DNA of 64,000 bases from Candidatus Saccharimonadales bacterium. Its GTDB lineage: Bacteria; Patescibacteriota; Saccharimonadia; Saccharimonadales; SZUA-47. Position 1 is the first letter of the stretch. Each line of letters opens with the position of its first letter. Made by a program: the position numbers and the translations under genes. Location of the stretch: assembly GCA_041737385.1 (NCBI GenBank), contig JBGSRU010000009.1, positions 7,015 through 71,014 of the forward strand. The letters run 5' to 3'. Positions 822 through 47,020 of this stretch are shown piece by piece. The notes beneath the pieces were generated by a model. The model was not told the DNA's origin, searched no databases, and saw only the letters and a program-made list of their open reading frames with translations.

Positions 822-1099
822 TTCTCGTTGGAATGAGCTGGGTGAGACAATCCTTGAAATTGTTGCAAGCAGACTTTCTGAATCAAGCTAGCTTGATGTA
901 ATGAAATCTCGAGGTCGAGGAACATGACTGCAGAATGTGGGCGAGCCCCACTGGACTTTTTAAAATTACAGTATTCATGAGAAATTTTTCGAGTTTGAAG
1001 AAACAATAAGTTTGGAAGCGTCGTTATAATGATCGTAATAAGAACGATAACTCTTTTAAAATGAGCAAACAACTCTCCTAGTTGGTATACTTAGATGTA

Positions 1100-24058: not shown

Positions 24059-24119
24059 GTCCTAGAGGACGTTCCTCTATAGGTGTAAAATCGTGTAACT
24101 TTGTATTTGAGAGGACTTG

Positions 24120-24204
24120 GTCACTTTCAGCGACCCCGAGATTTCATTGAATCAAATAAGTTTGATGAAGAAAGTCTCCTTCCGAAAGTCCACTGGACTT
24201 TCTC
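24120..24204 (-). repeat. Three-hairpin module, copy A (inserted in a tRNA-Pro-derived T arm)
   Basis: The minus strand reads GAGAAAGTCCAGTGGACTTTCGGAAGGAGAC...CGGGGTCGCTGAAAGTGAC. It is flanked by GAGAGGACTTG (24109-24119, identical to the tRNA-Pro T stem/loop) and ACCTCCAACC. Confidence 0.7.
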
Positions 24205-24255
24205 ACCTCCAACCTCTTCTCGGTCGGAGCTTCAAAGCCTCTCACGCCCAATGGT

Positions 24256-24431
24256 ACCAACTAAAAAGACCACTCGTGAAAGTGGTCATTTTAGTTGGTC
24301 GAGACCCACGCATTCTACTTGAACTGTTCAAATACATCTGTGAGAACCCTGAAAGTTCCGACAGGTTACTTGCTCGACTTAGACGTGAACCAAAACCTAG
24401 AATGGTCCAAATAGAAAATCTGGTGTACTAA
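24256..24431 (+). repeat. Direct repeat R2 (pairs with R1)
   Basis: Starts at the ACCA end of the degenerate tRNA-Pro 3' copy and includes the hairpin CCAACTAAAAAGACCAC..GTGGTCATTTTAGTTGG. Confidence 0.85.
24282..24431 (+). CDS. 49-codon ORF inside R2 (paralog of 23033-23182)
   Basis: It is in frame with the 104-aa track ORF 24117-24431, but only the last 49 codons are conserved with R1. Confidence 0.4.
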   Translation: MVILVGRDPRILLELFKYICENPESSDRLLARLRREPKPRMVQIENLVY

Positions 24432-24521
24432 TCTAGCGTGTTGACTTAAAACTGTCTTGTGTAAAGACTTCCTGATCCCTTTTTAGCGCATTAACAACAA
24501 TTTGGGCACATGTTTTGACTC

Positions 24522-25925
24522 CTATACGCAACAACTTAGTTTTGATATATCATTCTTGAACGAAAGAGCGGCGTACTTTATACCCTCAGATATGGTTGGG
24601 AACATTGGGATTGTATCTGTGACGTCATCAATTGTGTTTTTATTCTTAACAATCATCATAACCTCAGCAATCAGCTCACTTGCATGGGGTGCGACAATGG
24701 TCATGCCTTCAATAACTTCTGTCTTAGGATTAGCTGAAATGTTGAACAAGCCCTCGGTTTGCCTAGTTATGCCAGCTTTAGGTACTACTTCAAGCTGAAC
24801 TGTACGACACAAACACAGATTGTATCTACTCATCTGTTCTTCTTCGGTTAAACCAACACCTGCTAGTTGTGGGCTTGTGAATACAGCGAATGGAACAGTA
24901 TCATAATCTATTGAATTATTCTCGCTTTTAAGTGCGTTCAAGGTTGCAAGCGTTCCCTCACGACCAGCGGTCGTTTCTTGTCTTAGTGGAAGGTCAACGA
25001 CGTCCCCAACTGCAAATATATTCTTATTGTTGGTACTGTACGTGTTAGAAACCTTGATTGCTCCGTTTTTTGATAACTCAACGTTTGCCTTTTCGATGTT
25101 CATTTTGTCGGTATTAGGCGTTCTGCCAGAAGCAAGCAGTATCTCATCGACTACAAGTGTCTTTGATTCTTCGCCTACAGTGTAAGTTAGGTGTTTCTTC
25201 CCGTTCTTTGCCTCGACAGATTCAAGATTAGAACTGGTGATTATTTCGATACCTTCTTCTGATAGAATACCCTGTAGCCGAAATGCAGAACCTGTATCTA
25301 CTCTAGGCAGTATTCGTTCTGCTCGTTGCAAGATTGTAACTTTGCTTCCGAAACGAGAGAACATTTGTCCCCATTCCAATCCTTGTGCACCAGCACCAAC
25401 AACAGCTAATGACTTCGGTAGTTCTTTAAGCTCAACTGCATCAATGTGAGTTATATATCCAGCTTCTTCTAGCCCCTTTACGTCTGGTATCCGTGTTCGT
25501 GAGCCTGTTGCTATGATTATTTTTGGTGCTGTAAATGTTTCATTTTCAACAGCAACAGTTTTTTCGTTTTCAAAAGTGGCGTGCCCCTCAAGATAAGTTA
25601 CATGTTCAAGCTCGCCTAAGACGTCTTTATACTTCTTAGTTCGCATCTTCTCAACCATGGCTTGCTCATCAGCAATAACTTTGGCAAAATCAGCCTCTCT
25701 GACGTTAAACTCTAAACCAGGCACACCGTGATGTGTAGCATTGTGAACAAGTTCGGCTGCGTGAATAAGTGTTTTTGACGGGACACAGCCCACATTAACG
25801 CACGTACCGCCTAAAGGTAAGCCAGCATTGACCATCAAAGTCTTTGCTTTAAGTGTGTTGGCTTTAATGGCTGCAGAAAACGCTCCTGCACCGCCACCAA
25901 TAATAATAAGGTCGTATTGTTTCAT
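24522..25925 (-). CDS. merA: Mercuric reductase MerA (core enzyme, no N-terminal HMA domain)
   Basis: FAD motif IIIGGGAGAF, redox disulfide GGTCVNVGCVPSK and a C-terminal vicinal Cys pair (..KLSCCV). Confidence 0.8.
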   Translation of the reverse strand: MKQYDLIIIGGGAGAFSAAIKANTLKAKTLMVNAGLPLGGTCVNVGCVPSKTLIHAAELVHNATHHGVPGLEFNVREADFAKVIADEQAMVEKMRTKKYKDVLGELEHVTYLEGHATFENEKTVAVENETFTAPKIIIATGSRTRIPDVKGLEEAGYITHIDAVELKELPKSLAVVGAGAQGLEWGQMFSRFGSKVTILQRAERILPRVDTGSAFRLQGILSEEGIEIITSSNLESVEAKNGKKHLTYTVGEESKTLVVDEILLASGRTPNTDKMNIEKANVELSKNGAIKVSNTYSTNNKNIFAVGDVVDLPLRQETTAGREGTLATLNALKSENNSIDYDTVPFAVFTSPQLAGVGLTEEEQMSRYNLCLCRTVQLEVVPKAGITRQTEGLFNISANPKTEVIEGMTIVAPHASELIAEVMMIVKNKNTIDDVTDTIPMFPTISEGIKYAALSFKNDISKLSCCV

Positions 25926-25926
25926 T

Positions 25927-26247
25927 TTATGCTCCTAACATCTTAGCTACGTTTTGAAACTCTTTTTTATTGAGAGAGTAGAAGTTGTGCTTACCGTCCT
26001 TACGAACAGTCACAAGTTCCACATCTTTAAGACGAGCTAAACTATGTGAAGCATTGGAAATGCTTGTACCTACTAGTTCGGCTATGACTGTTACGTTAAG
26101 CTCGGGGTGGTGTCTGAGAAGGTAGCATATTTTTAATTTGGTCTGGTCACCAATGACACCGCATTGTCTGGCACATCTGTCGATTGCAACATTATCTACA
26201 AGTTCTTTTTTGATGTTATTGAGTTGAACGTTTGAACGCATATTCAA
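25927..26247 (-). CDS. ArsR/SmtB family metal-responsive transcriptional regulator
   Basis: Winged HTH (KLKICYLL...VTVIAELVGTSISNASHSLARLKDVELV). It sits 1 nt upstream of merA. Confidence 0.8.
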   Translation of the reverse strand: MNMRSNVQLNNIKKELVDNVAIDRCARQCGVIGDQTKLKICYLLRHHPELNVTVIAELVGTSISNASHSLARLKDVELVTVRKDGKHNFYSLNKKEFQNVAKMLGA

Positions 26248-26288
26248 ATGATACCATTACTTAAGCCCTGATTCAACAAGGCTTGTGC

Positions 26289-26343
26289 TACGTCGCACAA
26301 TCAACATTCTACGACATGCTCTAACAGGGGTAGAGCCATTTAT
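26289..26343 (+). repeat. Direct repeat R3b
   Basis: Copy of R3a. It overlaps the -10 and 5' UTR of the candidate arsR-merA promoter. Confidence 0.7.
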
Positions 26344-26366
26344 TTAGCGACTCGGGGCTTTGTCAA
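26338..26366 (-). promoter_or_regulatory. Candidate promoter of arsR-merA
   Basis: On the minus strand, TTGACA, a 17-nt spacer, then ATAAAT, about 90 nt upstream of the arsR start. Confidence 0.45.
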
Positions 26367-26444
26367 GTGCTAGTGTTGTTTTCGCCCACCCCTGTTAAAA
26401 AACCTACTACACCATAATAGGAATTTGCATACGTTTCATTAGGA

Positions 26445-27392
26445 TCAGACGTATATTCCTTGCTTAACTTTTATTGGGTCTAAAGGTTCGTTAGTAAACG
26501 GGTTAGTATAGCTGGTTAAGGGTGGTTCATCGGGTAAAGGAAACTTGCCAACCAGCCGAAATGGCTGTTTTGGCGGTGTTTCGTCACCTAGTTCTTCCCA
26601 TTCGCTTATCTTGCTAATTTCAATAGGCTCAAATACTATATCTTCCGATGACGTGAACGACTTGTCGCTTAGGTCATAAAAGCCACGAGCCATTTGCCCA
26701 ACAGCAGAACCTTTTCGCTTATTAGCCTTAACTACATACCTGTAAGTAAGGTCTACTATTATCGTGTCTCCACGTAGGTCAATTATTGGAACTTGTTCAA
26801 ATCTGTACTGGTATGAGCCTTCTTTGATAATGTCTATAGTATCGTCACTCCAATGGTCTCTAAATAATTCGTATATATTTCTTGGTGGCTCTGAGCCGTC
26901 AGATATTTTCATGTCCCATACTAGTGGCGAGAATCTAAAGTCTTGTCCTGTTTGTTCAAGACCATAAGAGATTGAATCAAGGTAAAATCCTTCCGCAATC
27001 ACTGGTGCTTTAATCATAAAGTTACTTGTATCTGCATGACCTTTATCTATTAGTACCACTGTCTTAATCTTGTAATGCTTGGCAGTTCGTAGGGCAGACT
27101 TAGTAAAGCCTGCATTTGAAATCATTATTCCGCTTTTTGCATTCTCATCCTTTAGCTTATTTGCAAATTGCTCAACCTTTGGCAGGTCTACTGGCTTTGA
27201 ATGATCCTTGCACTCAATATCAATGAAATCTTTGTCGCCAACCTTTATATCTATTTGTCTTGGAGCTTGGCTAATCACGCCAGTCACTTTTTGATTTGGT
27301 TTTACAATCTGATTACTAAAAACCTTGGAACTAGTCTGCATTGCACTTTCTTCAAAGCTTTTCCATTTAGGTTTCTTGGTGTTATCAGGCAT
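26445..27392 (-). CDS. Mrr-like restriction endonuclease domain protein (PD-(D/E)xK) with uncharacterised C-terminal domain
   Basis: N-terminal WKSFE...IDIKV...IDIECKDH...GIMISNAGFTKSA matches the Mrr_cat pattern. The C-terminal ~170 aa is unassigned. Confidence 0.6.
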   Translation of the reverse strand: MPDNTKKPKWKSFEESAMQTSSKVFSNQIVKPNQKVTGVISQAPRQIDIKVGDKDFIDIECKDHSKPVDLPKVEQFANKLKDENAKSGIMISNAGFTKSALRTAKHYKIKTVVLIDKGHADTSNFMIKAPVIAEGFYLDSISYGLEQTGQDFRFSPLVWDMKISDGSEPPRNIYELFRDHWSDDTIDIIKEGSYQYRFEQVPIIDLRGDTIIVDLTYRYVVKANKRKGSAVGQMARGFYDLSDKSFTSSEDIVFEPIEISKISEWEELGDETPPKQPFRLVGKFPLPDEPPLTSYTNPFTNEPLDPIKVKQGIYV

Positions 27393-27413
27393 TTACATAT
27401 CCTCAAGGATTAT

Positions 27414-27806
27414 CTATAAACTCGCAAGCACAATCGCTTCTTTAATCTCTTTTTCAATGCTATCGCCATATTTCTCAAGTTCTTCTAAAGTAACCCAAGA
27501 AAACTCTTGGTGCTCATCACTTAATACCACGTCATTGGTATTGGTGTCGCAAAGAAAGAACAATGCAACTATATGCTTAAGTTCACCTTCTGGTTTTGCG
27601 AACCACTCGTCAACGTGAATAACCTTACCTACAACTAAATCTGTAATACCAGTTTCCTCACTAGCTTCTCGGCGTAGACCGTCTTCCAGCTTTTCACCTT
27701 TTTCAAGTCTTCCGCCGACTGCTTGCCATCTTTCACCTTCACGAACAATAAGAAACTTTCCATCTTGATTTTTAATTACTGCTTTTACGGCTACTTGTGT
27801 ATCCAT
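27414..27806 (-). CDS. NUDIX hydrolase
   Basis: Nudix box GGRLEKGEKLEDGLRREASEETGI. Confidence 0.85.
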   Translation of the reverse strand: MDTQVAVKAVIKNQDGKFLIVREGERWQAVGGRLEKGEKLEDGLRREASEETGITDLVVGKVIHVDEWFAKPEGELKHIVALFFLCDTNTNDVVLSDEHQEFSWVTLEELEKYGDSIEKEIKEAIVLASL

Positions 27807-28612
27807 TATTGTTTCTGCTCCATTGTTAAATAAGTGTTTCGAATAGCTTCAATTAGATCGTTATCTAGCTCATTACTCCTAGCCATTTCTGATAGTAGAG
27901 CTAGGTCTTTTTTGGGTACTTGGCTTGGCTTGAATGCTATATTGGCTGTCATCATCTCCGCTAAGTCTTCTTTCCATACTTGTCCAAAATTATCTAATGA
28001 TTGCTCGCTCATGAAATCGTAAACAGCAGGTATATTTGCACCATACTTACTTAGTAGCCTGTGGGCTTCTACTCCGACTGCTAGGTTTGCATATCTAGCA
28101 AGGTTAAATGTGAGCTTTGCGAGTGTAGCAGAAGGAATATCTCCCATATATCGTGTACTACCCATAGCCTCAAACACTTCTTTATTATCTTCAAATGCTT
28201 TTTTTGAACCCTCAACTAAAAACTCAATTGTTCCACTAGTTGCATGGTTCTTGCCACCAATCATAGGTGAACTTAAAAATTGTTTGCCTTTAGACTCAAA
28301 TATACTCGCAAACTCTTTAGCTATTTCAGGTGTTAATGTACTTGTCTCAATAATCGTCACGATGTTGTTGTTTTCGGCGAGTAATTCTTCAATAACTGTT
28401 CGAGAAGCATCTGGATTAGGTAAACAGAGTATGACAACTTCACTAACATTAGCAATGTCGGTAACACTATTCGCCTTTTGAATACCAAATTGTTGAAGCT
28501 TAGTTGTTTGTTCATTATCAGTATCGAAGCCTATTAAGCTAAAGTCCTTAGAAAGTATGTTTTTCGCCATACCACTTCCCATGTTTCCTAGACCTACAAA
28601 ACCAATTTTCAT
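27806..28612 (-). CDS. NAD(P)-dependent oxidoreductase (3-hydroxyisobutyrate/6-phosphogluconate dehydrogenase-like)
   Basis: MKIGFVGLGNMGSGMAKN Rossmann start. ATG 28612 is preferred over the 30-codon upstream extension in the track. Confidence 0.75.
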   Translation of the reverse strand: MKIGFVGLGNMGSGMAKNILSKDFSLIGFDTDNEQTTKLQQFGIQKANSVTDIANVSEVVILCLPNPDASRTVIEELLAENNNIVTIIETSTLTPEIAKEFASIFESKGKQFLSSPMIGGKNHATSGTIEFLVEGSKKAFEDNKEVFEAMGSTRYMGDIPSATLAKLTFNLARYANLAVGVEAHRLLSKYGANIPAVYDFMSEQSLDNFGQVWKEDLAEMMTANIAFKPSQVPKKDLALLSEMARSNELDNDLIEAIRNTYLTMEQKQ

Positions 28613-28876
28613 AACTACATAATAACAGGGCAAAATTGGAATAGCCACACAATACCTCAACATATACCTTAAAGCTTGTCCAGTGCTCTTAGGATGCTTC
28701 ACAGAGCAACTTTTAACTAAGGGTTCTTGTTCATCTTTTGCATTGTACGAATACCGAGCGACTGCTCACGATTTTTTTTCTTAGATTTTCTACCCTCAAC
28801 GCCATTTATTCACGCAACAATACTATTATTATCTGACAGTGGTTTTCTTAAAAACTCAGTAAACGTATGAGAGTTC

Positions 28877-29107
28877 TTAGGCAATTGTCCAGAAATTCAT
28901 CGTAACTTTGGTTTGGTTTTCTTTGGCGGTAGTTATTCTTTCGGCGAATACCTGATTGTTCTTCAGATAGTAATAAAAACTACTCCTCGAAATCCCTGCA
29001 AAGCGACAACTGTCGGTAATGTTGGTGTTATGGGATATTGCGTCAGCCAAGATAATGACTGTACGCATAGTTATAATTTGTGGTCTTCCTACTGATTTCT
29101 TAATCAT
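28877..29107 (-). CDS. Small helix-turn-helix protein (candidate element regulator or directionality factor)
   Basis: 76 aa. ITDSCRFAGISRSSFYYYLK is a resolvase/transposase-type HTH. Confidence 0.45.
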   Translation of the reverse strand: MIKKSVGRPQIITMRTVIILADAISHNTNITDSCRFAGISRSSFYYYLKNNQVFAERITTAKENQTKVTMNFWTIA

Positions 29108-29192
29108 TAAACTCCTTTTGTTTTGATATGTATCTATTTTAATTATCTCATTTACACTATTTTGGGTAGGTAACCTATAATATTAAATAATT

Positions 29193-30041
29193 ATGGGTAC
29201 TCCAAAACCGAAGAAAGCTAACGACTATGCAGTAGCAAAAGCACTGAACGAGGTGGTCTATAGTATATTGGTCTTTGTATATGCGGGATGGGGTACTGAT
29301 CTATATAAAGAACATGAAATTGCGGAGATTAACCGCACATACATTCTGATAACGCACGAATTAGAAAAAATATACGCACGTAACCCCGAATTACTTGCAA
29401 TAAAGCCCGATCCGATTTGGAGACTTTTTGAAGTACTGAAAAACACCACGGAGACTATAGCCGACCACTTTAGTGATTCCGACGACCATGGTGCAGAGCA
29501 TACAGTAAGGGTAGAAAAGTTATGTATCCTTGCTGGTGTAGATGAGCCAAGTTATACACCAGAGCAACAGAAATTGGTGGATAATTCTAAAGTGGCAATT
29601 AGTAATTATGCTGCGTTGGTCAAGAAGGAAGGCGAGAAATTGTTAGCAGTAAAAAAAGAATACGGCTGGGAGATGATGAATTACTATCTGACTTACAAAC
29701 CAGACGGCACAATCTTGATAAACGACGTATTGAAACTTAAGAAAGTTCATGCAGGATCCATCACGGAAAAGTTGCTAGAACAATCCATAAAGAATCCTAA
29801 TACTAAATTCAAGCCAGAACTCGGAAAGACAGCGAGAAATATCAGCACAATAGTTAGTAGTGCTGGCTTTACGCCTGTTCTAAGGGATTTGTTTTTCCCA
29901 ACTGTTAGTGGTGACACCGTCGTATTCCGTCCATTTGTATCTAAATTACAGGCAGATACAGAACGCATAGATAGAGATGAACTAGATTTGCAGCTCAGAG
30001 AAAACGGTGCTATCTGCAGAGTAGTATTTGAACCAAAGTGA
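29193..30041 (+). CDS. Hypothetical protein (282 aa) within the island
   Basis: Long ORF in which I recognised no family. Confidence 0.45.
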   Translation: MGTPKPKKANDYAVAKALNEVVYSILVFVYAGWGTDLYKEHEIAEINRTYILITHELEKIYARNPELLAIKPDPIWRLFEVLKNTTETIADHFSDSDDHGAEHTVRVEKLCILAGVDEPSYTPEQQKLVDNSKVAISNYAALVKKEGEKLLAVKKEYGWEMMNYYLTYKPDGTILINDVLKLKKVHAGSITEKLLEQSIKNPNTKFKPELGKTARNISTIVSSAGFTPVLRDLFFPTVSGDTVVFRPFVSKLQADTERIDRDELDLQLRENGAICRVVFEPK

Positions 30042-30182
30042 ACCGAAAAGAACCATATGAAACGACATCAAACTGATACAGCGACTTAAAGATATATAAG
30101 TTCTTTAATGGTGATAGGACGAATAATCCGAGTTCACCTAACTATAATCGTCTTGTTAGGAGGGCTCGAATACGGAGCCGAT

Positions 30183-30368
30183 ATGTCATTAAGTAATGAG
30201 CAAGAAAATAAGAATGTTACCAGTCAAGAAACTAACAGCATAAGCGATACAAGAATAAACCTAGCTGCCGTTGTCATTGGGCTAGAAAAAACTAGAGCCA
30301 CAATACAAGATTTAACAGATAACGAACTGTATGTATTCGATTTGCACGGGAACAAAGTATTACTATAA
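30183..30368 (+). CDS. Small hypothetical protein
   Basis: An internal ATG with a GGAG-like RBS is preferred over the 30108 start. Support is weak. Confidence 0.25.
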   Translation: MSLSNEQENKNVTSQETNSISDTRINLAAVVIGLEKTRATIQDLTDNELYVFDLHGNKVLL

Positions 30369-30420
30369 ATATTTAGCAAGAGTCTACACGAACTATTGAA
30401 TCAGTCTATAATACGACTAA

Positions 30421-32085
30421 ATGAATGATGATATAGCAACAACCAAACAATTATTACAGATGATGCAGACCTTGTATCCTAATCAGGATCCAAGAGATAT
30501 TGACCCAACAACTTTGCGATATGTCATATATGCTAGAAAATCTACTAGAAGTGAAGAACGACAAGAACGAAGTATACCTGACCAGATTGCAGACTGTTAT
30601 CTCAGAGAGGTAGACCTATACGGGTTAACCGTTATTGGTAAGCCAATCCGTGAGAAGCAAAGTGCAAAAGAACCAGATATACGACCTAAGTTTCGACAGA
30701 TGATTGATGACATAAAAGCTGGTAAGTATGACGGTATCATCGCATGGCACCCTGATAGGCTTGCAAGGAATATGAAAGAGGCAGGAGAGATAATTGACCT
30801 ACTGGACAAGGGCATTCTTAAAGACATACGCTTCGCTACAAGTAGCTTTGAAAACAGCCCAACAGGTAAGATGTTACTCGGCATATCTTTTGTTCTATCT
30901 AAACAGTATTCAGAGCACTTGAGTGAAAGCGTAACAAGAGGTAATAGACGTAAGACAGAAGGTGGTGTGTTCTTCGCTGATATGAAGCACGGTTACTACA
31001 TAGGGGACGGTAAGCTGTTTCCTGACGGCAATAACTTCATACTTATTAGACAAGCATTTGAGAAACGTCTTGAGGGTTGGGGTCAGAAAGAAATAGCTAA
31101 CTGGCTAAATACTCAAGGCTATATGATTAGAAAAAAGAACAAAAAGCCCCAAACATTCAAGTGGGACAAGGACAATATTAGTAAGCTATTTCGTGATACG
31201 ACTAATGCTGGAGTTCTTAAATACGGTCAGACATTCACTGACCTGACAGACTTTTATGATTTTGAAGCTGTTGTATCTGTTGAAGAGTTTCTTAAAATCA
31301 ACAAGGTCAAAGACTTGTCTGATCCTAAGCTAATGTCATCAATCTTGGTCAAGTCTAGAGAAGCCACGAAAGCAAATCTGTTAAGGGGTATGGTGTATTG
31401 TGGTTTTTGCGGTAAATCTTTTAGCTCTGGAATAACTGTCAAAAAAGACAAAGAAACTAGAAAGATACTCACTAGTCGTTACTTTTACCGATGTGAAAAC
31501 GAAGAATGTGAATTTAAGAATAAAAGTGTCAGAGCAAAAACTGTAATAGAGGTTGCAATCAAGTTCCTGTCTGAGCACCTGTACACGACTAAAGATAACT
31601 ATGATAGATATGTCTCTGACGCTAAAGAGTACGCTTCTACACAAGCCAAAGCTCTTGATGGCGACATTGCCAGCTTAGCTCGACAAATAGGCAATAAGAA
31701 AGCCGAGTACAGTCGCACAAAAGAGATTATCAGAGACAAGCCAGCTCTTGCCAAGCACTACAACTTAGATGAGATTGAAGCTGAGCTAAAAGCCATTACT
31801 ACTGACCACGACAAGCTTGCTAAGAGCCGTAAAGACCTCAAGCAATCGGTTTTGGAATATTCTGAATATCTCGAACTTTTTGAAAACATAGGTGTTATTT
31901 TAACAAAAACGCATGATATGGGGTTATTAGACGAGAACATCAAAAAGTTCTTCTTGAACTTTTCTGTGAAGCAATGGGGACTAGGTAAAAAACAGAGGTC
32001 AGAAGTTACCTTCAACTTAAATGAACCCTTCGCAGGGTTCATAAAATCGAACAATTTCGTTCATGGTCGGGGTGAGAGGACTTGA
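30421..32085 (+). CDS. Large serine recombinase (integrase)
   Basis: Resolvase catalytic domain (YVIYARKSTRSEERQERSIPDQ, DGIIAWHPDRLARN), recombinase domain, zinc ribbon (CGFCGK...CENEEC) and a coiled coil. The last 22 nt overlap the 3' end of tRNA-Pro. Confidence 0.9.
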   Translation: MNDDIATTKQLLQMMQTLYPNQDPRDIDPTTLRYVIYARKSTRSEERQERSIPDQIADCYLREVDLYGLTVIGKPIREKQSAKEPDIRPKFRQMIDDIKAGKYDGIIAWHPDRLARNMKEAGEIIDLLDKGILKDIRFATSSFENSPTGKMLLGISFVLSKQYSEHLSESVTRGNRRKTEGGVFFADMKHGYYIGDGKLFPDGNNFILIRQAFEKRLEGWGQKEIANWLNTQGYMIRKKNKKPQTFKWDKDNISKLFRDTTNAGVLKYGQTFTDLTDFYDFEAVVSVEEFLKINKVKDLSDPKLMSSILVKSREATKANLLRGMVYCGFCGKSFSSGITVKKDKETRKILTSRYFYRCENEECEFKNKSVRAKTVIEVAIKFLSEHLYTTKDNYDRYVSDAKEYASTQAKALDGDIASLARQIGNKKAEYSRTKEIIRDKPALAKHYNLDEIEAELKAITTDHDKLAKSRKDLKQSVLEYSEYLELFENIGVILTKTHDMGLLDENIKKFFLNFSVKQWGLGKKQRSEVTFNLNEPFAGFIKSNNFVHGRGERT

Positions 32086-32140
32086 ACCTCCGACCTCGCG
32101 GTCCCAAACCGCGCACTCTAGCCAACTGAGCTACACCCCG
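32064..32140 (-). tRNA. tRNA-Pro (anticodon UGG), CCA encoded
   Basis: CGGGGTG-TA-GCTC-AGTTGGCTA-GAGT-G-CGCGG-TTTGGGA-CCGCG-AGGTC-GGAGG-TTCAAGT-CCTCT-CACCCCG-A-CCA. A TATAAT box lies at 32154-32159. Confidence 0.92.
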
Positions 32141-32188
32141 ATGATGTATATGTATTATAACTTATAAAGGTTCAAATCTGAGGACTTG

Positions 32189-32275
32189 GTCACGTACCGC
32201 GACCCCGTCGCCACTTCTTTGAAAACAAGTTTACAAGAGTGAACTCCCTTGCGAAGTGCGCAATCGGCACTTCTC
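32189..32275 (-). repeat. Three-hairpin module, copy B
   Basis: The minus strand reads GAGAAGTGCCGATTGCGCACTTCGCAAGGGAG...CGGGGTCGCGGTACGTGAC, flanked by a tRNA 5' fragment and CAAGTCCTCA. Confidence 0.7.
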
Positions 32276-32302
32276 ACTCTAGCCAACTGAGCTACACTCT
32301 GG
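32276..32302 (-). pseudogene. tRNA 5' fragment (acceptor plus D arm only)
   Basis: CCAGAGTGTAGCTCAGTTGGCTAGAGT. Its 21-nt D-arm region is identical to tRNA-Pro, the acceptor strand differs, and there is no anticodon arm. Confidence 0.7.
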
Positions 32303-32435
32303 AATCAGCGTGTGATGATTCGGTTGCTGTTCCGCTCACAAAACAAGTTTGATGAACGAATCAAGCAACCGAATTAAGCCACTGATTCTTCAAATTCGAA
32401 AACCCTCTCTCAAATTTGGTTTAGCTACGAATATC
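32303..32435 (-). repeat. Conserved structured region, copy 1 (pairs with 46887-47020)
   Basis: Shared blocks are CGTGTGATGATT, GCC..GATTC and AGCTAC.AATA. The 11-bp stems covary, and the terminal hairpin at 32391-32418 pairs fully only on the minus strand (two G-T pairs). Confidence 0.6.
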
Positions 32436-34882: not shown

Positions 34883-35110
34883 TCAAGGAATGAGGTGAAG
34901 TAGAATCCAGCCGAATGCGTCCCATACGCTGTTTGAGCCACGTCGTAGTAGCCACCAACCAAAAACTGTCACACTCAAACCAATACATACGGCTAGAATT
35001 TTATCACCTAACTCAATATTGCCAATAAGTATAAAAATGACAGAAACACCTATACCAATAAGAAACATAGGAACACCAAGGATTATGCAAAGTGCTTTTT
35101 TGACTGTCAT
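34883..35110 (-). CDS. Small two-TM membrane protein
   Basis: The internal start MTVKKALCIILG is preferred. The ORF is hydrophobic and I recognised no family. Confidence 0.35.
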   Translation of the reverse strand: MTVKKALCIILGVPMFLIGIGVSVIFILIGNIELGDKILAVCIGLSVTVFGWWLLRRGSNSVWDAFGWILLHLIP

Positions 35111-35170
35111 GAGTATATTGTAACAAACAAAAATACCTCCGTTGGGGGTATTTTTAAGATACATAGAAAT

Positions 35171-35359
35171 TAGTACCTCAGGAGGGAATCGATCTACCTT
35201 CGGCAGCCCCGAAACTACATCTATGAAAGCAATCTTTCAAGTGAAGGTTTCCTTACAAACTGCCACAGGCAGTTTTCACCCCGACCTTTTTGGTCGGGCG
35301 TTCGACTCGCTTCGCGAGTACCAAACTAAAAACCAGCCTAGAAAGGCTGGACTTTAGTT
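35171..35359. mobile_element. Miniature cargo-less insertion at the 3' end of tRNA-Arg(UCU)
   Basis: It begins with a 19/22 copy of the tRNA-Arg 3' end (35171-35192). It then carries module C1, an inverted degenerate copy of the tRNA 3' part ending in ACCA (35292-35323), and a hairpin. Confidence 0.5.
35193..35277 (-). repeat. Three-hairpin module, copy C1
   Basis: The minus strand reads GAAAACTGCCTGTGGCAGTTTGTAAGGAAAC...CGGGGCTGCCGAAGGTAGA, flanked by GGTCGGGGT and TCGATTCCCTCC. Confidence 0.7.
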
Positions 35360-35362
35360 TGG
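35321..35362 (-). terminator. Hairpin/terminator abutting the CCA end of tRNA-Arg(UCU)
   Basis: An 18-nt-arm stem, CCAAACTAAAAACCAGCC..GGCTGGACTTTAGTTTGG, with two mismatches. Confidence 0.55.
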
Positions 35363-35436
35363 TACCCCGGGAGGGAATCGAACCCCCGACCTGTGGGATA
35401 GAAGCCCATTGCTCTAATCCGCTGAGCTACCGGGGC
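35360..35436 (-). tRNA. tRNA-Arg (anticodon UCU), CCA encoded
   Basis: GCCCCGG-TA-GCTC-AGCGGATTA-GAGC-A-ATGGG-CTTCTAT-CCCAC-AGGTC-GGGGG-TTCGATT-CCCTC-CCGGGGT-A-CCA. A TATAAT box lies at 35452-35457. Confidence 0.9.
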
Positions 35437-35480
35437 GAGTACCAGATAAGTATTATAACAGGGGTTCGATCCAGAATCGA

Positions 35481-35566
35481 GCCACCTTTGGCGGCCCTGA
35501 AACTTCATGATTGAAAAACAAGTTTTCATCAGAAGATTTCCTTGCAAAATGCTACCAGCATTTCTC
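35481..35566 (-). repeat. Three-hairpin module, copy C2
   Basis: The minus strand reads GAGAAATGCTGGTAGCATTTTGCAAGGAAATC...CAGGGCCGCCAAAGGTGGC. Confidence 0.7.
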
Positions 35567-35620
35567 ACCCCGACCTGTGGGATAGAAGCCCATTGCTCTA
35601 ATCCGCTGAGCTACCGGGGC
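35567..35620 (-). pseudogene. Truncated second copy of tRNA-Arg(UCU), positions 1-54 only
   Basis: It is 100 percent identical to 35383-35436, and the identity continues through the 10-nt upstream flank. It ends at the T-loop where module C2 begins, with no matching 3' acceptor strand downstream. Confidence 0.75.
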
Positions 35621-35645
35621 GAGTACCAAATCGCTTAAAATCAAT

Positions 35646-35720
35646 TGGTGCGGGTGGCGAGAGTCTAACTCGCGTCGCCTGCTTGGAAGGCAGGAATAAT
35701 GAACGTTATACCACACCCGC
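35646..35720 (-). tRNA. tRNA-Gly (anticodon UCC) with atypical D and T loops
   Basis: GCGGGTG-TG-GTAT-AACGTTCA-TTAT-T-CCTGC-CTTCCAA-GCAGG-CGAC-GCGAG-TTAGACT-CTCGC-CACCCGC-A-CCA. The D loop has no GG, and T-loop position 56 is A rather than C. Confidence 0.7.
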
Positions 35721-35768
35721 ATGAGCATGATTTTCAGAGGTGATTATACGCTAAACCGTAGCACATTG

Positions 35769-37292
35769 CTAGAGGTCGTGGACAACTTCTATCTGTGCAC
35801 CGAGACTATTAAGACGCTCTGCAAGATCTTCGTAGCCTCTATTTATCGTATAAACATTGCGCAACATTGATTTGCCTGGAGCAGCGAGCATCCCAATGAG
35901 CAATAAGCTTGCTGGCCGCAACGCAGGCGGGCAGGCCAAGTCAGCTCGCGTGAATTTAGTGATTCCTGTAATATAGACGCGGTGCGGATCAGCTAATTCT
36001 ACGTTTGCACCAATTTTAGTCATCTCTGTGTAGTAGATTGCTCTGTTCTCATAGGTCCAATCGTGAATTAGAGTGCGACCTTTAGCCACGGCGCAAATTG
36101 GGACGAAATACGGAAGATTATCTTGATTTAGCCCTGGATAAATATTGGCATGAATCTTATCTTCGAGCGAGATAAGCGAGCCATTATGTTTATGAACGGT
36201 TATATCAACGAGATCAGTAAATCCATTTTTTGCTTTATAGCGCCCACTTTGATCATAGATGAGTCCCATTTTTTTCAGTTTGAGCATTTCTAGAGTCATA
36301 AAATCAATCGGCACACGCTTAATTGTTATTTGTGAGTTGGTTGTTACTGCTGTACTTACAAAAAACATTGCTTCAATTGGATCTTCTGCTGGCGCATAGA
36401 CGACGTTTTGTTTGATCTCTTTTGCTGATCCGGTAATCGTGAGTGTCATAGAGCCGATGCCGTCAATTTTCACCCCAAGCTTTTCCAGATATCCGCAGAC
36501 ATCCTGCACCATGTAATTCGCACTTGCCATTTGAATTATAGTTTTCCCAGGGGCTTTTGCTGCAGCCATAACGACATTTTCAGTCACAGTATCTCCTGAT
36601 TCATACAAGGTTATGTGCTCAGGTTGCATAGGCTTACAGTTGATTTGGTAGAATCTATTTTTTGCTTCAATTGATACGCCAAACTCTTCTAGCCCGTATA
36701 AATGAGGCTTTACCGTGCGCTCGCCGAGTTTACAGCCCCCGGCATATGGTATTTTGAATTCTTTTAGCTCATGCATCAGGGGACCTATCATCATCAGTAC
36801 GGAACGGGTTTTTCGAGCTGCTTTAGCATCCAGATTTTCCATTTTCAGATGAGCTGGTCGCTTTATCTCGAGGTCGTTACCTTCGAGCCAACGTACTTTA
36901 ACTCCTATACTCTCAAGCACTTCAATAATTCGGAATACTTCTTCAATGCGCGGAAATGATTTAAATGTTGTCGTACCTTTGTTTAGCAGACTAGCGCATA
37001 GCAGCCCTACAGCCGCGTTTTTACTGGTTTTAAGAGTGATTGTGCCAGCGAGCTCATGCCCGCCATCAATTGAGAGGTTTACTCCTTGATTACCAACAGA
37101 TATTAACGGCTTCTCTAGTACTTCACTGATACGGCTCAACATATCTAGGCTGAGGTTCTGGTTGCCTTTTTCAATACGATTGATAGCAGATTGTGACGTA
37201 CCGAGCTTACTGGCAAACTCGGACTGAGTAAGCCCTCGTATCTGTCGCAACTCAGATATAAGAGAACCGATGCGTTCGTTTGTTTCTTTCAT
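35769..37292 (-). CDS. murA: UDP-N-acetylglucosamine 1-carboxyvinyltransferase MurA fused to an N-terminal XRE-type HTH domain
   Basis: Residues ~10-65 form an HTH (LRQIRGLTQSEFASKLGTSQSAINRIEKGNQNLSLDML). The rest is full-length MurA, including YAGGCKLGERTVKPH with the active-site Cys. Confidence 0.85.
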   Translation of the reverse strand: MKETNERIGSLISELRQIRGLTQSEFASKLGTSQSAINRIEKGNQNLSLDMLSRISEVLEKPLISVGNQGVNLSIDGGHELAGTITLKTSKNAAVGLLCASLLNKGTTTFKSFPRIEEVFRIIEVLESIGVKVRWLEGNDLEIKRPAHLKMENLDAKAARKTRSVLMMIGPLMHELKEFKIPYAGGCKLGERTVKPHLYGLEEFGVSIEAKNRFYQINCKPMQPEHITLYESGDTVTENVVMAAAKAPGKTIIQMASANYMVQDVCGYLEKLGVKIDGIGSMTLTITGSAKEIKQNVVYAPAEDPIEAMFFVSTAVTTNSQITIKRVPIDFMTLEMLKLKKMGLIYDQSGRYKAKNGFTDLVDITVHKHNGSLISLEDKIHANIYPGLNQDNLPYFVPICAVAKGRTLIHDWTYENRAIYYTEMTKIGANVELADPHRVYITGITKFTRADLACPPALRPASLLLIGMLAAPGKSMLRNVYTINRGYEDLAERLNSLGAQIEVVHDL

Positions 37293-46486: not shown

Positions 46487-46682
46487 TGGAGGGCCAGCGT
46501 GGACTTGACTCACCTTTGGCGAGCCCCGAACTTCGTCTTTGCAAACCAGTTTGCAAGAGAAGATTCGTTTCCAAAATGCCACCGGCACTTTTCACCCCAG
46601 GCACCCTTTTGGCGTGTCCGATGTTCAAGTTCCACCAACCCTACCATATGAAAATACCCACGGCGAGGTGGGTATTTTCATA
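46487..46682. mobile_element. Miniature cargo-less insertion at the 3' end of tRNA-Lys
   Basis: It begins with a 22/24 copy of the tRNA-Lys 3' end including CCA (46487-46510). It then carries module D, an inverted degenerate tRNA-Lys T-arm copy, and a 16-bp perfect hairpin. Confidence 0.55.
46509..46593 (-). repeat. Three-hairpin module, copy D
   Basis: The minus strand reads GAAAAGTGCCGGTGGCATTTTGGAAACGAATC...CGGGGCTCGCCAAAGGTGAG, flanked by CCTGGGGT and TCAAGTCCACGCTGGCCCTCCA. Confidence 0.7.
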
Positions 46683-46683
46683 T
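46646..46683 (-). terminator. Perfect 16-bp hairpin abutting the CCA end of tRNA-Lys
   Basis: ATATGAAAATACCCAC-GGCGAG-GTGGGTATTTTCATAT. Confidence 0.65.
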
Positions 46684-46759
46684 GGAGGGCCAGCGGGGAC
46701 TTGAACCCCGGACACCCTGCTTAAGAGGCAGGTGCTCTAACCAGCTGAGCTACTGGCCC
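46683..46759 (-). tRNA. tRNA-Lys (anticodon CUU), CCA encoded
   Basis: GGGCCAG-TA-GCTC-AGCTGGTTA-GAGC-A-CCTGC-CTCTTAA-GCAGG-GTGTC-CGGGG-TTCAAGT-CCCCG-CTGGCCC-T-CCA. Confidence 0.92.
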
Positions 46760-46868
46760 TTAATTTGAATGATATAGTAATGTGCTACTTGTAACTATAG
46801 CTTGCGGTAACTTTTGGTTAGAGCACCGGTGCTTGTAGTTATCTTGTCTTGGCATAGAATACCTCGGG

Positions 46869-46886
46869 CAGCTGAGCTACTGGCCC
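46869..46886 (-). pseudogene. 18-nt duplicate of the tRNA-Lys 5' end
   Basis: GGGCCAGTAGCTCAGCTG is identical to 46742-46759. A sense-on-plus GGTTAGAGCACC piece within the palindrome AGCACCGGTGCT lies nearby. Confidence 0.65.
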
Positions 46887-47020
46887 GTCGTTATCGTGTG
46901 ATGATTGTCTAGCCACACTACCAGCAAAATAAATTTACTGGTACTGTTGACTACACAATCAGGCCGATTCCTCTCAATTTCGAGAATCCTCTCTCGAAAT
47001 TGTTAAGCTACAATAGCAAC
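46887..47020 (-). repeat. Conserved structured region, copy 2
   Basis: See 32303-32435. It has a perfect hairpin at 46975-47002 (CAATTTCGAGA-ATCCTC-TCTCGAAATTG). Confidence 0.6.

Follow-up and report, generated by a model that had tools for sequence, protein, structure and literature searches.

The DNA analysed here, henceforth called the window, is a stretch of 64,000 nucleotides (nt) of chromosomal DNA of a Saccharimonadales bacterium (Candidate Phyla Radiation (CPR)/TM7), in which two copies of a short structured sequence, henceforth called module M, interrupt partial copies of tRNA-Arg(UCU). We consider it probable that M is a new non-autonomous, orientation-specific insertion element that targets tRNA genes and forms a family specific to Saccharibacteria, and that the locus consists of one working tRNA-Arg(UCU) gene and two dead partial copies.

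Anatomy of the tRNA-Arg(UCU) locus

Read along the minus strand, the locus begins with tRNA-Gly(UCC) and a 25-nt spacer, followed by tRNA-Arg positions 1-53, module C2, the sequence TCGATTC, TG, GATCGAACCCC, the promoter TGtTATAAT, and a leader. The second half comprises the intact tRNA-Arg(UCU), a terminator, an inverted and decayed copy running from position 77 to 46, an AAAAA loop, GGTCGGGG, module C1, and a decayed 3' end of 22 nt. The unit upstream of the intact gene is henceforth called type U and the one downstream of it type D. Each piece was confirmed by repeat finding, blastn, and alignment. The nine items that an earlier note on this DNA had listed for the region were all present, with coordinates exact or off by 1-2 nt, and the anatomy it had proposed, i.e., an intact tRNA-Arg between a 5'-type and a 3'-type unit that both carry the module, was confirmed. 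The parts, in window coordinates, are:

35646-35720, minus strand: tRNA-Gly(UCC) (ARAGORN and Rfam)
35568-35631, minus strand: truncated 5' copy of tRNA-Arg(UCU), positions 1-53 (35568-35620) plus about 10 nt of leader (repeat finding, blastn)
35481-35567, minus strand: module C2 of the type U unit, 87 nt, with 5'-UGAGAA, P1, UUGCAAG, P2, GG, P3-3' (cmsearch 101 bits, covariation, fold)
35474-35480, minus strand: resumed tRNA sequence TCGATTC, linear positions 56-62 (anchoring of the flanks AGGTCGGGG and TCGATTCCC on either side of the missing gt)
35461-35471, minus strand: fold-back, an inverted copy of the T loop and the T-stem 5' strand, GATCGAACCCC (sequence, minimum free energy (MFE) fold)
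35452-35460, minus strand: extended -10 promoter TGtTATAAT of the intact tRNA-Arg, TATAAT at 35452-35457 (sequence)
35360-35436, minus strand: intact tRNA-Arg(UCU) with encoded CCA (ARAGORN; Rfam 64.6 bits)
35333-35350, minus strand: intrinsic terminator hairpin of tRNA-Arg (terminator scan)
35292-35323, plus strand: inverted, decayed tRNA-Arg 3' part from variable loop to CCA, prolonging the terminator palindrome (25/32 against the reverse complement of tRNA 46-77)
35279-35291, minus strand: second turn-around, AAAAA loop (35287-35291) and direct copy of tRNA 46-53, GGTCGGGG (35279-35286) (sequence)
35193-35278, minus strand: module C1 of the type D unit, 86 nt (cmsearch 91.5 bits, covariation)
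35171-35192, minus strand: decayed direct tRNA-Arg 3' end, linear positions 56-77, ending in ACTA, not ACCA (repeat finding; 18/20 by alignment)

The truncated copy ends after the fourth G of the T-stem 5' strand and is 100% identical to the intact gene over tRNA positions 1-53 (blastn). By repeat finding, the repeated block (35384-35447 and 35568-35631) spans 64 nt with a single mismatch (98%), which lies in the leader after eight identical nt and is followed by two further identical ones. The perfect copy of positions 1-54 plus 10 nt of flank claimed in the earlier note thus has to be narrowed to positions 1-53, since 35567 is the first base of the module and the leader departs after 8 nt. 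Its 3'-end copy at 35171-35192 (19/22) is present, with repeat finding giving 35170-35192 and 20/23. Between the flanks of C2 exactly 2 nt are missing (G54 and T55), and anchoring the flanks of the decayed 3' copy revealed the same 2-nt gap at C1. The two modules are direct repeats with 77-79% identity, and their differences are compensatory in three hairpins; module patterns occurred 0-0.1 times in shuffled sequence vs. twice in the window.

On the upstream side, the inverted T-arm piece as a whole spans 35459-35472, and its core GATCGAACCCC pairs with the GGGG upstream of C2 and thereby closes the module (MFE fold); an equivalent fold-back is present in the T-arm type U units L020, L034, L050, L062, L063, L088, and L118. 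The promoter is native to tRNA-Arg rather than module-borne, as the same ctgttataatacatctctggtactc lies upstream of tRNA-Arg in L006, where there is no intact module. The intact gene is presumably functional, and tRNA-Gly(UCC) is probably co-transcribed with the truncated copy. On the downstream side, a palindrome is centred on the terminator, its 48-nt arms (35292-35339 and 35344-35391) being 81% complementary (repeat finding), and equivalents of the inverted 3' part are present in the other type D units. The second turn-around and the end of the inverted copy form a hairpin, P0 (CCCGACC-AAAAA-GGTCGGG), whose stem covaries in L006 (CACCTTGGCC and GGTTGGGGTG).

In relatives, tRNA-Gly and tRNA-Arg are immediate neighbours, with 17 nt between them in L004 and 3 nt in L103, so that the truncated copy occupies the ancestral Arg slot. 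Other species (L006, L103) have the same layout at tRNA-Arg(UCU); a type D unit follows the gene in the related locus L006 as well, and only a 5'-truncated remnant of one is left in L004. The truncated copy (35566-35620) scored 30.6 bits against the Rfam tRNA model (gathering threshold 29) by pairing GCCCCGG with UCGGGGU, and annotation pipelines may thus report it as a T-armless pseudo-tRNA. Reading it as a real T-armless tRNA was rejected, as the equivalent pairing is missing for tRNA-Gln in L034.

An assembler could also have generated such a locus by collapsing or expanding repeated tRNA segments, given that the contig is metagenome-assembled and that a 64-nt repeat exceeds common k-mer sizes. 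However, an independent Logan assembly of the same sample (SRR28170464) was identical to the window letter for letter from 47292 to 35599, and its unitig ended 22 nt inside the truncated tRNA-Arg copy, as is expected of a de Bruijn unitig that enters a real repeat. C1 and C2 differ at about 22% of their positions and hence are not collapsed copies, and both layouts were recovered from more than 100 independent assemblies of different projects. We therefore regard an assembly artefact as extremely unlikely.

Module family and insertion signature

Modules were searched with a covariance model (cmsearch) in a genome set, consisting of 48 other Saccharibacteria loci and the window (395 kb), and in a metagenome set of 100 loci. 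This yielded six matches in the window, 67 in the genome set, and 120 in the metagenome set. Pattern searches of the window with up to three mismatches had returned only two modules and were misleading; the earlier view of the module as a local peculiarity of two copies had to be abandoned in favour of one instance of a large family. Copies in other Saccharibacteria contigs numbered about 190. When one genome per species was scanned for a 24-nt core pattern, about 45 true modules were returned, every one of them in a contig of Saccharibacteria or Patescibacteria.

An alignment of 40 modules supported 31 base pairs in three helices, with 97.7% of the cells paired vs. 27-52% when the 3' partner was slid along the sequence; 15 of the 31 pairs had changed on both sides, and the observed values were reached by none of 500 shuffles. 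When divergent subfamilies were included (67 sequences, in an alignment fitted to the model), 29 of 31 pairs had changed on both sides and 96.4% were paired. The fold consists of a 5' UGAGAA tail, helix P1 closed by GCC-NGU-GGC, a UYGCAAG joiner, a variable P2, GG(G), and P3 (UCGC...GUGAC). Near-invariant are the 5' UGAGAA, the GCC-NGU-GGC top of P1, the joiner (UYGCAAGG), and GGGG-UCGC...GUGAC; P2 and P3 differ greatly among copies in both length and sequence, the sequence of P1 is free to vary, and P1 and P3 are unrelated to each other. A G.U pair in P3 was kept in 37/40 and 57/65 sequences, which means that only the tRNA-sense strand can fold. The ends of the module (5'-TGAGAA and GTGAC-3') are not inverted repeats.

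The modules matched no family of Rfam 15, neither at the gathering threshold (where only tRNAs were found in the window) nor at E <= 10 (35000-35800), and no group I or II intron core was detected at that cutoff, Intron_gpI included. No module was found in viral contigs or in phage and plasmid collections (stricter pattern; blastn), a first pattern having given five chance matches in viral contigs. An all-against-all blastp of open reading frames (ORFs) within 3.5 kb of 43 module loci gave no recurrent protein family, only a spurious module-spanning ORF and MurA, the latter owing to synteny, and no recombinase, reverse transcriptase, or TnpA (HUH) was seen in these flanks. The literature search turned up no description of an M-like element, only an unrelated paper on group I introns (PMC13011429).

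Several candidate identities for the module were dropped. A hammerhead ribozyme was suggested by CUGAUGA/GAAA in C2, which is not conserved among copies; guide-like pairing of P1 with the flanks was discarded from the alignments, in which both P1 strands pair with each other; and TIGR arrays, retrons, bridge RNAs, and omega RNAs were set aside, as there is no associated protein or array structure. A regular-expression search for long ORF-bearing module variants gave nothing informative. One module of L198 is broken in P2 by unrelated sequence and resembles a truncation rather than an autonomous copy.

The orientation of the modules relative to the nearest tRNA was the same in all 47 cases of the genome set and in 82 of 83 of the metagenome set (129/130 overall). 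Missing nucleotides were counted by anchoring both module flanks in the adjacent intact tRNA gene. Exactly 2 target nt were missing at 26 of 27 genome sites and at 28 of 38 anchored metagenome sites, and nowhere were none missing; the single exception among the genome sites, upstream of the tRNA-Pro of the window, lacks 31 nt (2 + 27 + 2). The insertion site can be written as RG/NN/Y (slashes enclosing the 2 nt), with GG, AG, or CG as the upstream target, and the first nt retained after M is the target's own base, usually paired with G79 of M. Insertions were found after linear position 17 (D loop), 24 (3' strand of the D stem), 37 (anticodon loop), and 50-54/62-64 (T stem/loop junction). A further target is the start of P3 in another module, after GTTTCGGG. 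Such nested modules, in which 2 nt of the host P3 were replaced, were found at 839-932 of the window and in L083, L098, L119, and L091.

In L176 (1660-1900) and L100 (600-830), the module sits in an antisense copy of the tRNA T arm (...GAACTGGG/GA/CACAAGG), again with a 2-nt loss; from these loci it follows that the local RG/NN/Y context, and not tRNA sense as such, defines the cut.

The modules bear signs of turnover. Several modules in one pseudo-copy were observed in L098 and L020, and one tRNA-Leu was surrounded by up to five modules, its upstream pseudo-copy bearing insertions at both G37 and the T stem. Decayed or truncated remnants were present in L004 and L002, and bit scores fell continuously from 112 to about 30.

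Tyrosine and serine integrases duplicate the 3' part of tRNA genes as attL/attR, and tRNA genes are the classical sites of such integration. The tRNA fragments could hence be remnants of this type, left by integrated phages or islands, with M as a conserved element end (arm). As in integrative elements, a partial tRNA copy lies beside an intact gene, tRNA genes are preferred, and the displaced copy decays. Moreover, the window does contain a true island (about 24.3-32.06 kb), whose large serine recombinase lies directly against tRNA-Pro, and in L198 small genes between type D units are flanked by 9-bp GGCCCTCCA repeats. However, the M units contain no integrase, the insert comprises 86 nt plus local sequence, and the repeats are separated by only about 120-190 nt; near M there is no recurrent recombinase, and M itself is also missing from the viral and plasmid collections. 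The 5' parts of tRNAs are duplicated as often as the 3' parts, and the junctions, which share no core, fall at four positions in the tRNA, with precisely 2 nt lost at each of them. Conservative site-specific recombination neither loses bases nor makes inverted copies, and both are seen here, together with co-orientation and an RNA-like fold. We consider such scars an improbable source of the units.

Unit layouts, possible mechanism, and alternative explanations

Two unit layouts were distinguished, both of which keep one intact gene. In type U, a promoter is followed by the tRNA 5' part up to the insertion site, M, 7-10 tRNA nt, a nearly loop-less inverted T-arm copy, the native promoter, and the intact gene. 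In type D, the intact gene is followed by its terminator, an inverted copy of tRNA positions 77 to 45 that extends the terminator palindrome, a loop of 3-7 nt, tRNA positions 45-53, M, and tRNA positions 56-77; a second terminator usually ends the unit and is the same as the first in L064, L212, L215, and L240. Types U and D were counted 14 and 19 times in the genome set and 41 and 32 times in the metagenome set, where two further loci had both; at least 28 anticodon types were represented. About half of the sampled tRNA genes carried one or two units and about half none. In the window, partial tRNA copies occurred only beside inserts, and tRNA-His, tRNA-Gly, and tRNA-Arg(UCG) had none. Direct tRNA copies were typically 95-100% identical to the gene (about 97%; often 100%), in contrast to promoters, leaders, and modules, which had diverged, and to the inverted copies, which were about 78% identical and contained indels.

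Non-canonical archaeal introns lie at loop positions of tRNAs, as M does, and Patescibacteria, the host phylum of M, are rich in tRNA introns, with group I introns at 35/36 (PMC13011429). M could thus be an intervening sequence that is spliced out of tRNA-Arg, or the 5' and 3' units could be halves that are joined in trans. The likeness lies in a structured, sense-oriented insert at loop or junction positions. Moreover, the acceptor strand left beside C1 (CTGAGGT, a decayed CCGGGGT) pairs with GCCCCGG at six of seven positions when G.U is counted, contrary to the incompatibility stated in the earlier note. The conclusion drawn there, that the truncated copy belongs to neither an intron-containing nor a split tRNA, stands nonetheless: the C2 unit has no 3' part and the C1 unit no 5' part, and joining positions 1-53 to 56-77 would leave the tRNA 2 nt short, the equivalents of T54/Psi55 included. 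C1 and C2 are parallel homologues and not complements, as would be needed in split or permuted tRNAs, the 3' copy lacks CCA, and neither a ribozyme core (group I or II) nor a bulge-helix-bulge motif is present. When modules were deleted and six filler variants were used, ARAGORN called junction-spanning tRNAs for 4 of 45 modules (L020, L034 twice, and L096), all of them using leftover T-arm pieces; in no case was the interrupted gene complete and equipped with an acceptor 3' strand of its own. An uninterrupted gene lies directly beside 33 of the 45 modules of the genome set. An intron or a split tRNA is accordingly very improbable.

If M is an insertion element, the folding of the sense strand, its G.U pairs, and the fixed orientation suggest movement via a strand-specific intermediate (RNA or single-stranded DNA), and the enzyme would be supplied in trans. 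The turning points of the inverted segments are palindromic (the T loop with TTCGAA/TCGA, and the terminator), and these segments would thus arise by snap-back or wrong-strand annealing of a broken or stalled 3' end during repair synthesis after insertion. Selection would leave as survivors only those outcomes that regenerate an intact tRNA, and gene conversion, or loop-out and re-integration, could later keep the direct tRNA copies from departing from the gene. The near-perfect 64-nt block had been ascribed to very recent duplication or ongoing gene conversion. Recency is unlikely to be the whole story, as C1 and C2 appear old (about 78% identical), the same contrast between copies and modules is seen family-wide, and the layout recurs in other species; continuing homogenisation seems the better explanation of the identity, and selection is also possible.

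A tentative and rather doubtful version of this mechanism places the insertion at the RNA level. M would then be a small ribozyme-like or ligase- or reverse-transcriptase-dependent RNA that inserts into exposed loop nucleotides of folded tRNA transcripts (17, 24, 37, 53) and becomes established in DNA through snap-back copying that primes itself at the palindromes of the T loop or the terminator. If this were the case, M would be a bacterial retro-type element that homes to tRNA, is non-coding, and builds a spare partial gene copy during integration, i.e., a mobility mechanism without a described prokaryotic counterpart.

A number of points weigh against M as a mobile element. Mobility is deduced from the sequence pattern and was not seen directly: no transposition enzyme, intermediate, or within-species polymorphism between empty and filled sites was identified, and the snap-back model would require several template switches. 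The RG/NN/Y site is far too frequent to account on its own for the restriction to tRNAs. Direct tRNA copies are often identical to the gene, the joining sequences of M are nearly invariant, and long-term retention in genomes of roughly 1 Mb could indicate a function at the level of the host. The same pairs of tRNA and layout occur in different species (type D at Arg-UCU, Lys-CUU, His, and Val-UAC; type U at Pro-UGG, Gln-CUG, and Gly-GCC). Lastly, other insert families share the architecture, so that the architecture, rather than M, may be the selected feature.

Most of these points would suit functional RNA genes or cis-regulators, i.e., U and D units kept by selection in the host, with M as a protein- or ligand-binding domain on a tRNA-derived scaffold. 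Such units might act as tRNA-mimic decoys, or as a switch in which the inverted "anti-tRNA" strand pairs with the 3' half of the real tRNA or with the decoy and thus controls maturation or stability. The strong covariation speaks for this as well, as do whole units that fold into closed multi-helix structures (z = -3.9 and -2.6) and direct copies that stay close to the gene, in contrast to the drifting promoters, leaders, and inverted copies. On the other hand, decay, truncation, nesting, or deletion has affected many copies in close relatives, and nested insertion wrecks P3 of the host module; type D units lie behind a terminator without a promoter of their own, the tRNA copy beside C1 is decaying in the window together with its CCA (ACTA), and about half of the tRNAs do without any unit. 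On balance, a function as RNA is unlikely, though less so than the scars and introns discussed above.

Further inserts in the same arrangement were observed alongside the modules. In L221, L050, L028, L216, L144, L170, L191, L235, and L233, a tRNA is followed by a terminator, an inverted tRNA copy, an insert, and a direct 3' copy ending in CCA, and the inserts (100-130 nt) were not matched by a regular expression for the 5' part of the module. At least two further insert families appear to be present, one starting with a P1-like hairpin with a CAGUG loop and the other containing GCGGAGGAGCGAA. In L198 (11160-12800), three type D units of the Lys type occur in alternation with small genes (172, 117, and 140 aa), one at a time; each gene is bracketed by the 9-bp GGCCCTCCA repeats, which correspond to the tRNA-Lys 3' end, and ends in a TAGTTCYAATAGA motif. 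This resembles a cassette array, with no intact tRNA in 14 kb.

As an insertion element, M shares features with several known systems. Like MITEs (miniature inverted-repeat transposable elements), REP/BIME, Correia/NEMIS, RUP, ERIC, and palindrome-associated transposable elements (PATEs), it is short, high-copy, structured, and non-coding, with nested and decayed copies, and is presumably mobilised in trans. Unlike any of these small repeats, its target is tRNA-derived and its insertion is accompanied by fold-back partial gene duplication; unlike MITEs, it has no terminal inverted repeats, and 2 target nt are lost instead of duplicated. PATEs derived from IS200/IS605 come close in being strand-specific, as are the co-oriented modules, and in making no target-site duplication. 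However, that family does not share the 2-nt deletion, the unrelated P1 and P3 of M contrast with its related subterminal hairpins, and RG contrasts with its fixed tetra- or pentanucleotide target. Integron attC sites, which stand between promoterless cassettes beside an intI gene, are single hairpins formed by imperfect palindromes with R''-L''/L'-R' boxes, in contrast to the three-helix junction of M, and no integrase lies nearby, although a cassette-like array was observed in L198.

Among eukaryotic elements, R2 with its SIDEs and TRE5/TRE3 of Dictyostelium insert in a fixed orientation with a small, precise target deletion (2 bp for R2), and a structured RNA is recognised; the tRNA-gene-targeted TRE5/TRE3 sit upstream or downstream of tRNA genes, and short non-autonomous forms exist. 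M resembles these retroelements without long terminal repeats in its fixed orientation, its small target deletion, its sense-strand fold with G.U, and its positions upstream and downstream of the gene. It differs in that no reverse transcriptase was seen nearby, in having neither poly(A) nor a 3' tail repeat, and in flanks with inverted local duplications. To our knowledge, no described bacterial element combines an 86-nt three-helix fold, sense orientation in tRNA, 2-nt replacement, and fold-back partial duplication. M is thus probably a new kind of element, although it may prove to be derived from a known transposition system.

Saccharibacteria have genomes of roughly 1 Mb with very little non-coding DNA, and six copies in 64 kb constitute a new repeat family in such a reduced genome. 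M would show that tRNA genes can be remodelled without being lost. In practice, the units break short-read assemblies at tRNA loci, create pseudo-tRNA calls, and supply homology for deletions and island shuffling. If they are functional RNAs instead, they would form a novel tRNA-scaffolded RNA class, found in episymbionts on which experiments are difficult. The covariance model and the two layouts provide a handle for surveying all CPR genomes.

Further modules and genes of the window

Besides C1 and C2, the following modules were found in the window:

46505-46598, minus strand: module of a type D unit downstream of tRNA-Lys(CUU) (46683-46759) (cmsearch 93.8 bits)
32185-32280, minus strand: module of a type U unit upstream of tRNA-Pro(UGG) (cmsearch 68 bits)
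24116-24209, minus strand: module of a divergent subfamily, type D, with Pro-like flanks and no intact tRNA (cmsearch 83.6 bits)
839-932, plus strand: module of a divergent subfamily, nested in the remains of another module's P3, after the terminator of a protein gene (cmsearch 53 bits)

The tRNA-Lys unit contains the terminator, the inverted copy, and a 21/22 copy of Lys 56-77 (blastn). The module at tRNA-Pro is flanked on its 5' side by Pro 5-27, with the junction after linear position 25 in the D stem, and on its 3' side by Pro 57-64; it is a deletion derivative of the two-module arrangement preserved in L020. The module at 24116-24209 probably indicates the former 3' end of tRNA-Pro, moved away when an island integrated.

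The region in question (24300-32140) has a low GC content (0.38-0.39). Among its products are a mercuric-reductase-like oxidoreductase, accompanied by an ArsR regulator, and a restriction enzyme of the Mrr type, together with a NUDIX protein and a dehydrogenase. A large serine recombinase of 554 aa (30421-32085) overlaps the 3' end of tRNA-Pro with its gene. The region looks like a genomic island integrated in tRNA-Pro, which would have moved the old Pro 3' end, the terminator, and the type D module to about 24100-24330.

A fold-back of the type U kind, in which the insert is different or deleted, is present at 46800-46886 (minus strand): positions 1-18 of tRNA-Lys are repeated 110 nt upstream of the intact gene, and some 40 nt without relation to the module then lead to an inverted Lys 19-30. 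A repeat of the form AAATTTGAGAGAGG(G/A)TT(T)TCGAA(A/T)TTGA(A/G)(G)GAATC(A/G)G... was found on the minus strand upstream of the units at tRNA-Pro (about 32370-32420) and tRNA-Lys (about 46950-47005), and in the Gly-Arg spacer of a related genome (L002, 5700-5745); it may be a decayed tRNA fragment plus module.

ARAGORN predicted six tRNA genes in the window, all on the minus strand. The genes adjoining the tRNA-Arg locus encode MurA (35769-37292), SHMT, and MurB. MurA carries an N-terminal helix-turn-helix (HTH_3) domain, and this fusion is kept in at least 120 Saccharimonadales homologues; homologues from Saccharibacteria metagenome-assembled genomes were 73-100% identical (73-86% excluding the window's own protein). 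Three Logan contigs of related genomes, assembled independently from short reads (L001, L003, and L005), all end 100-170 nt downstream of MurA, at or just past tRNA-Gly, and L001 was shown to break off on entry into the duplicated tRNA-Arg block.

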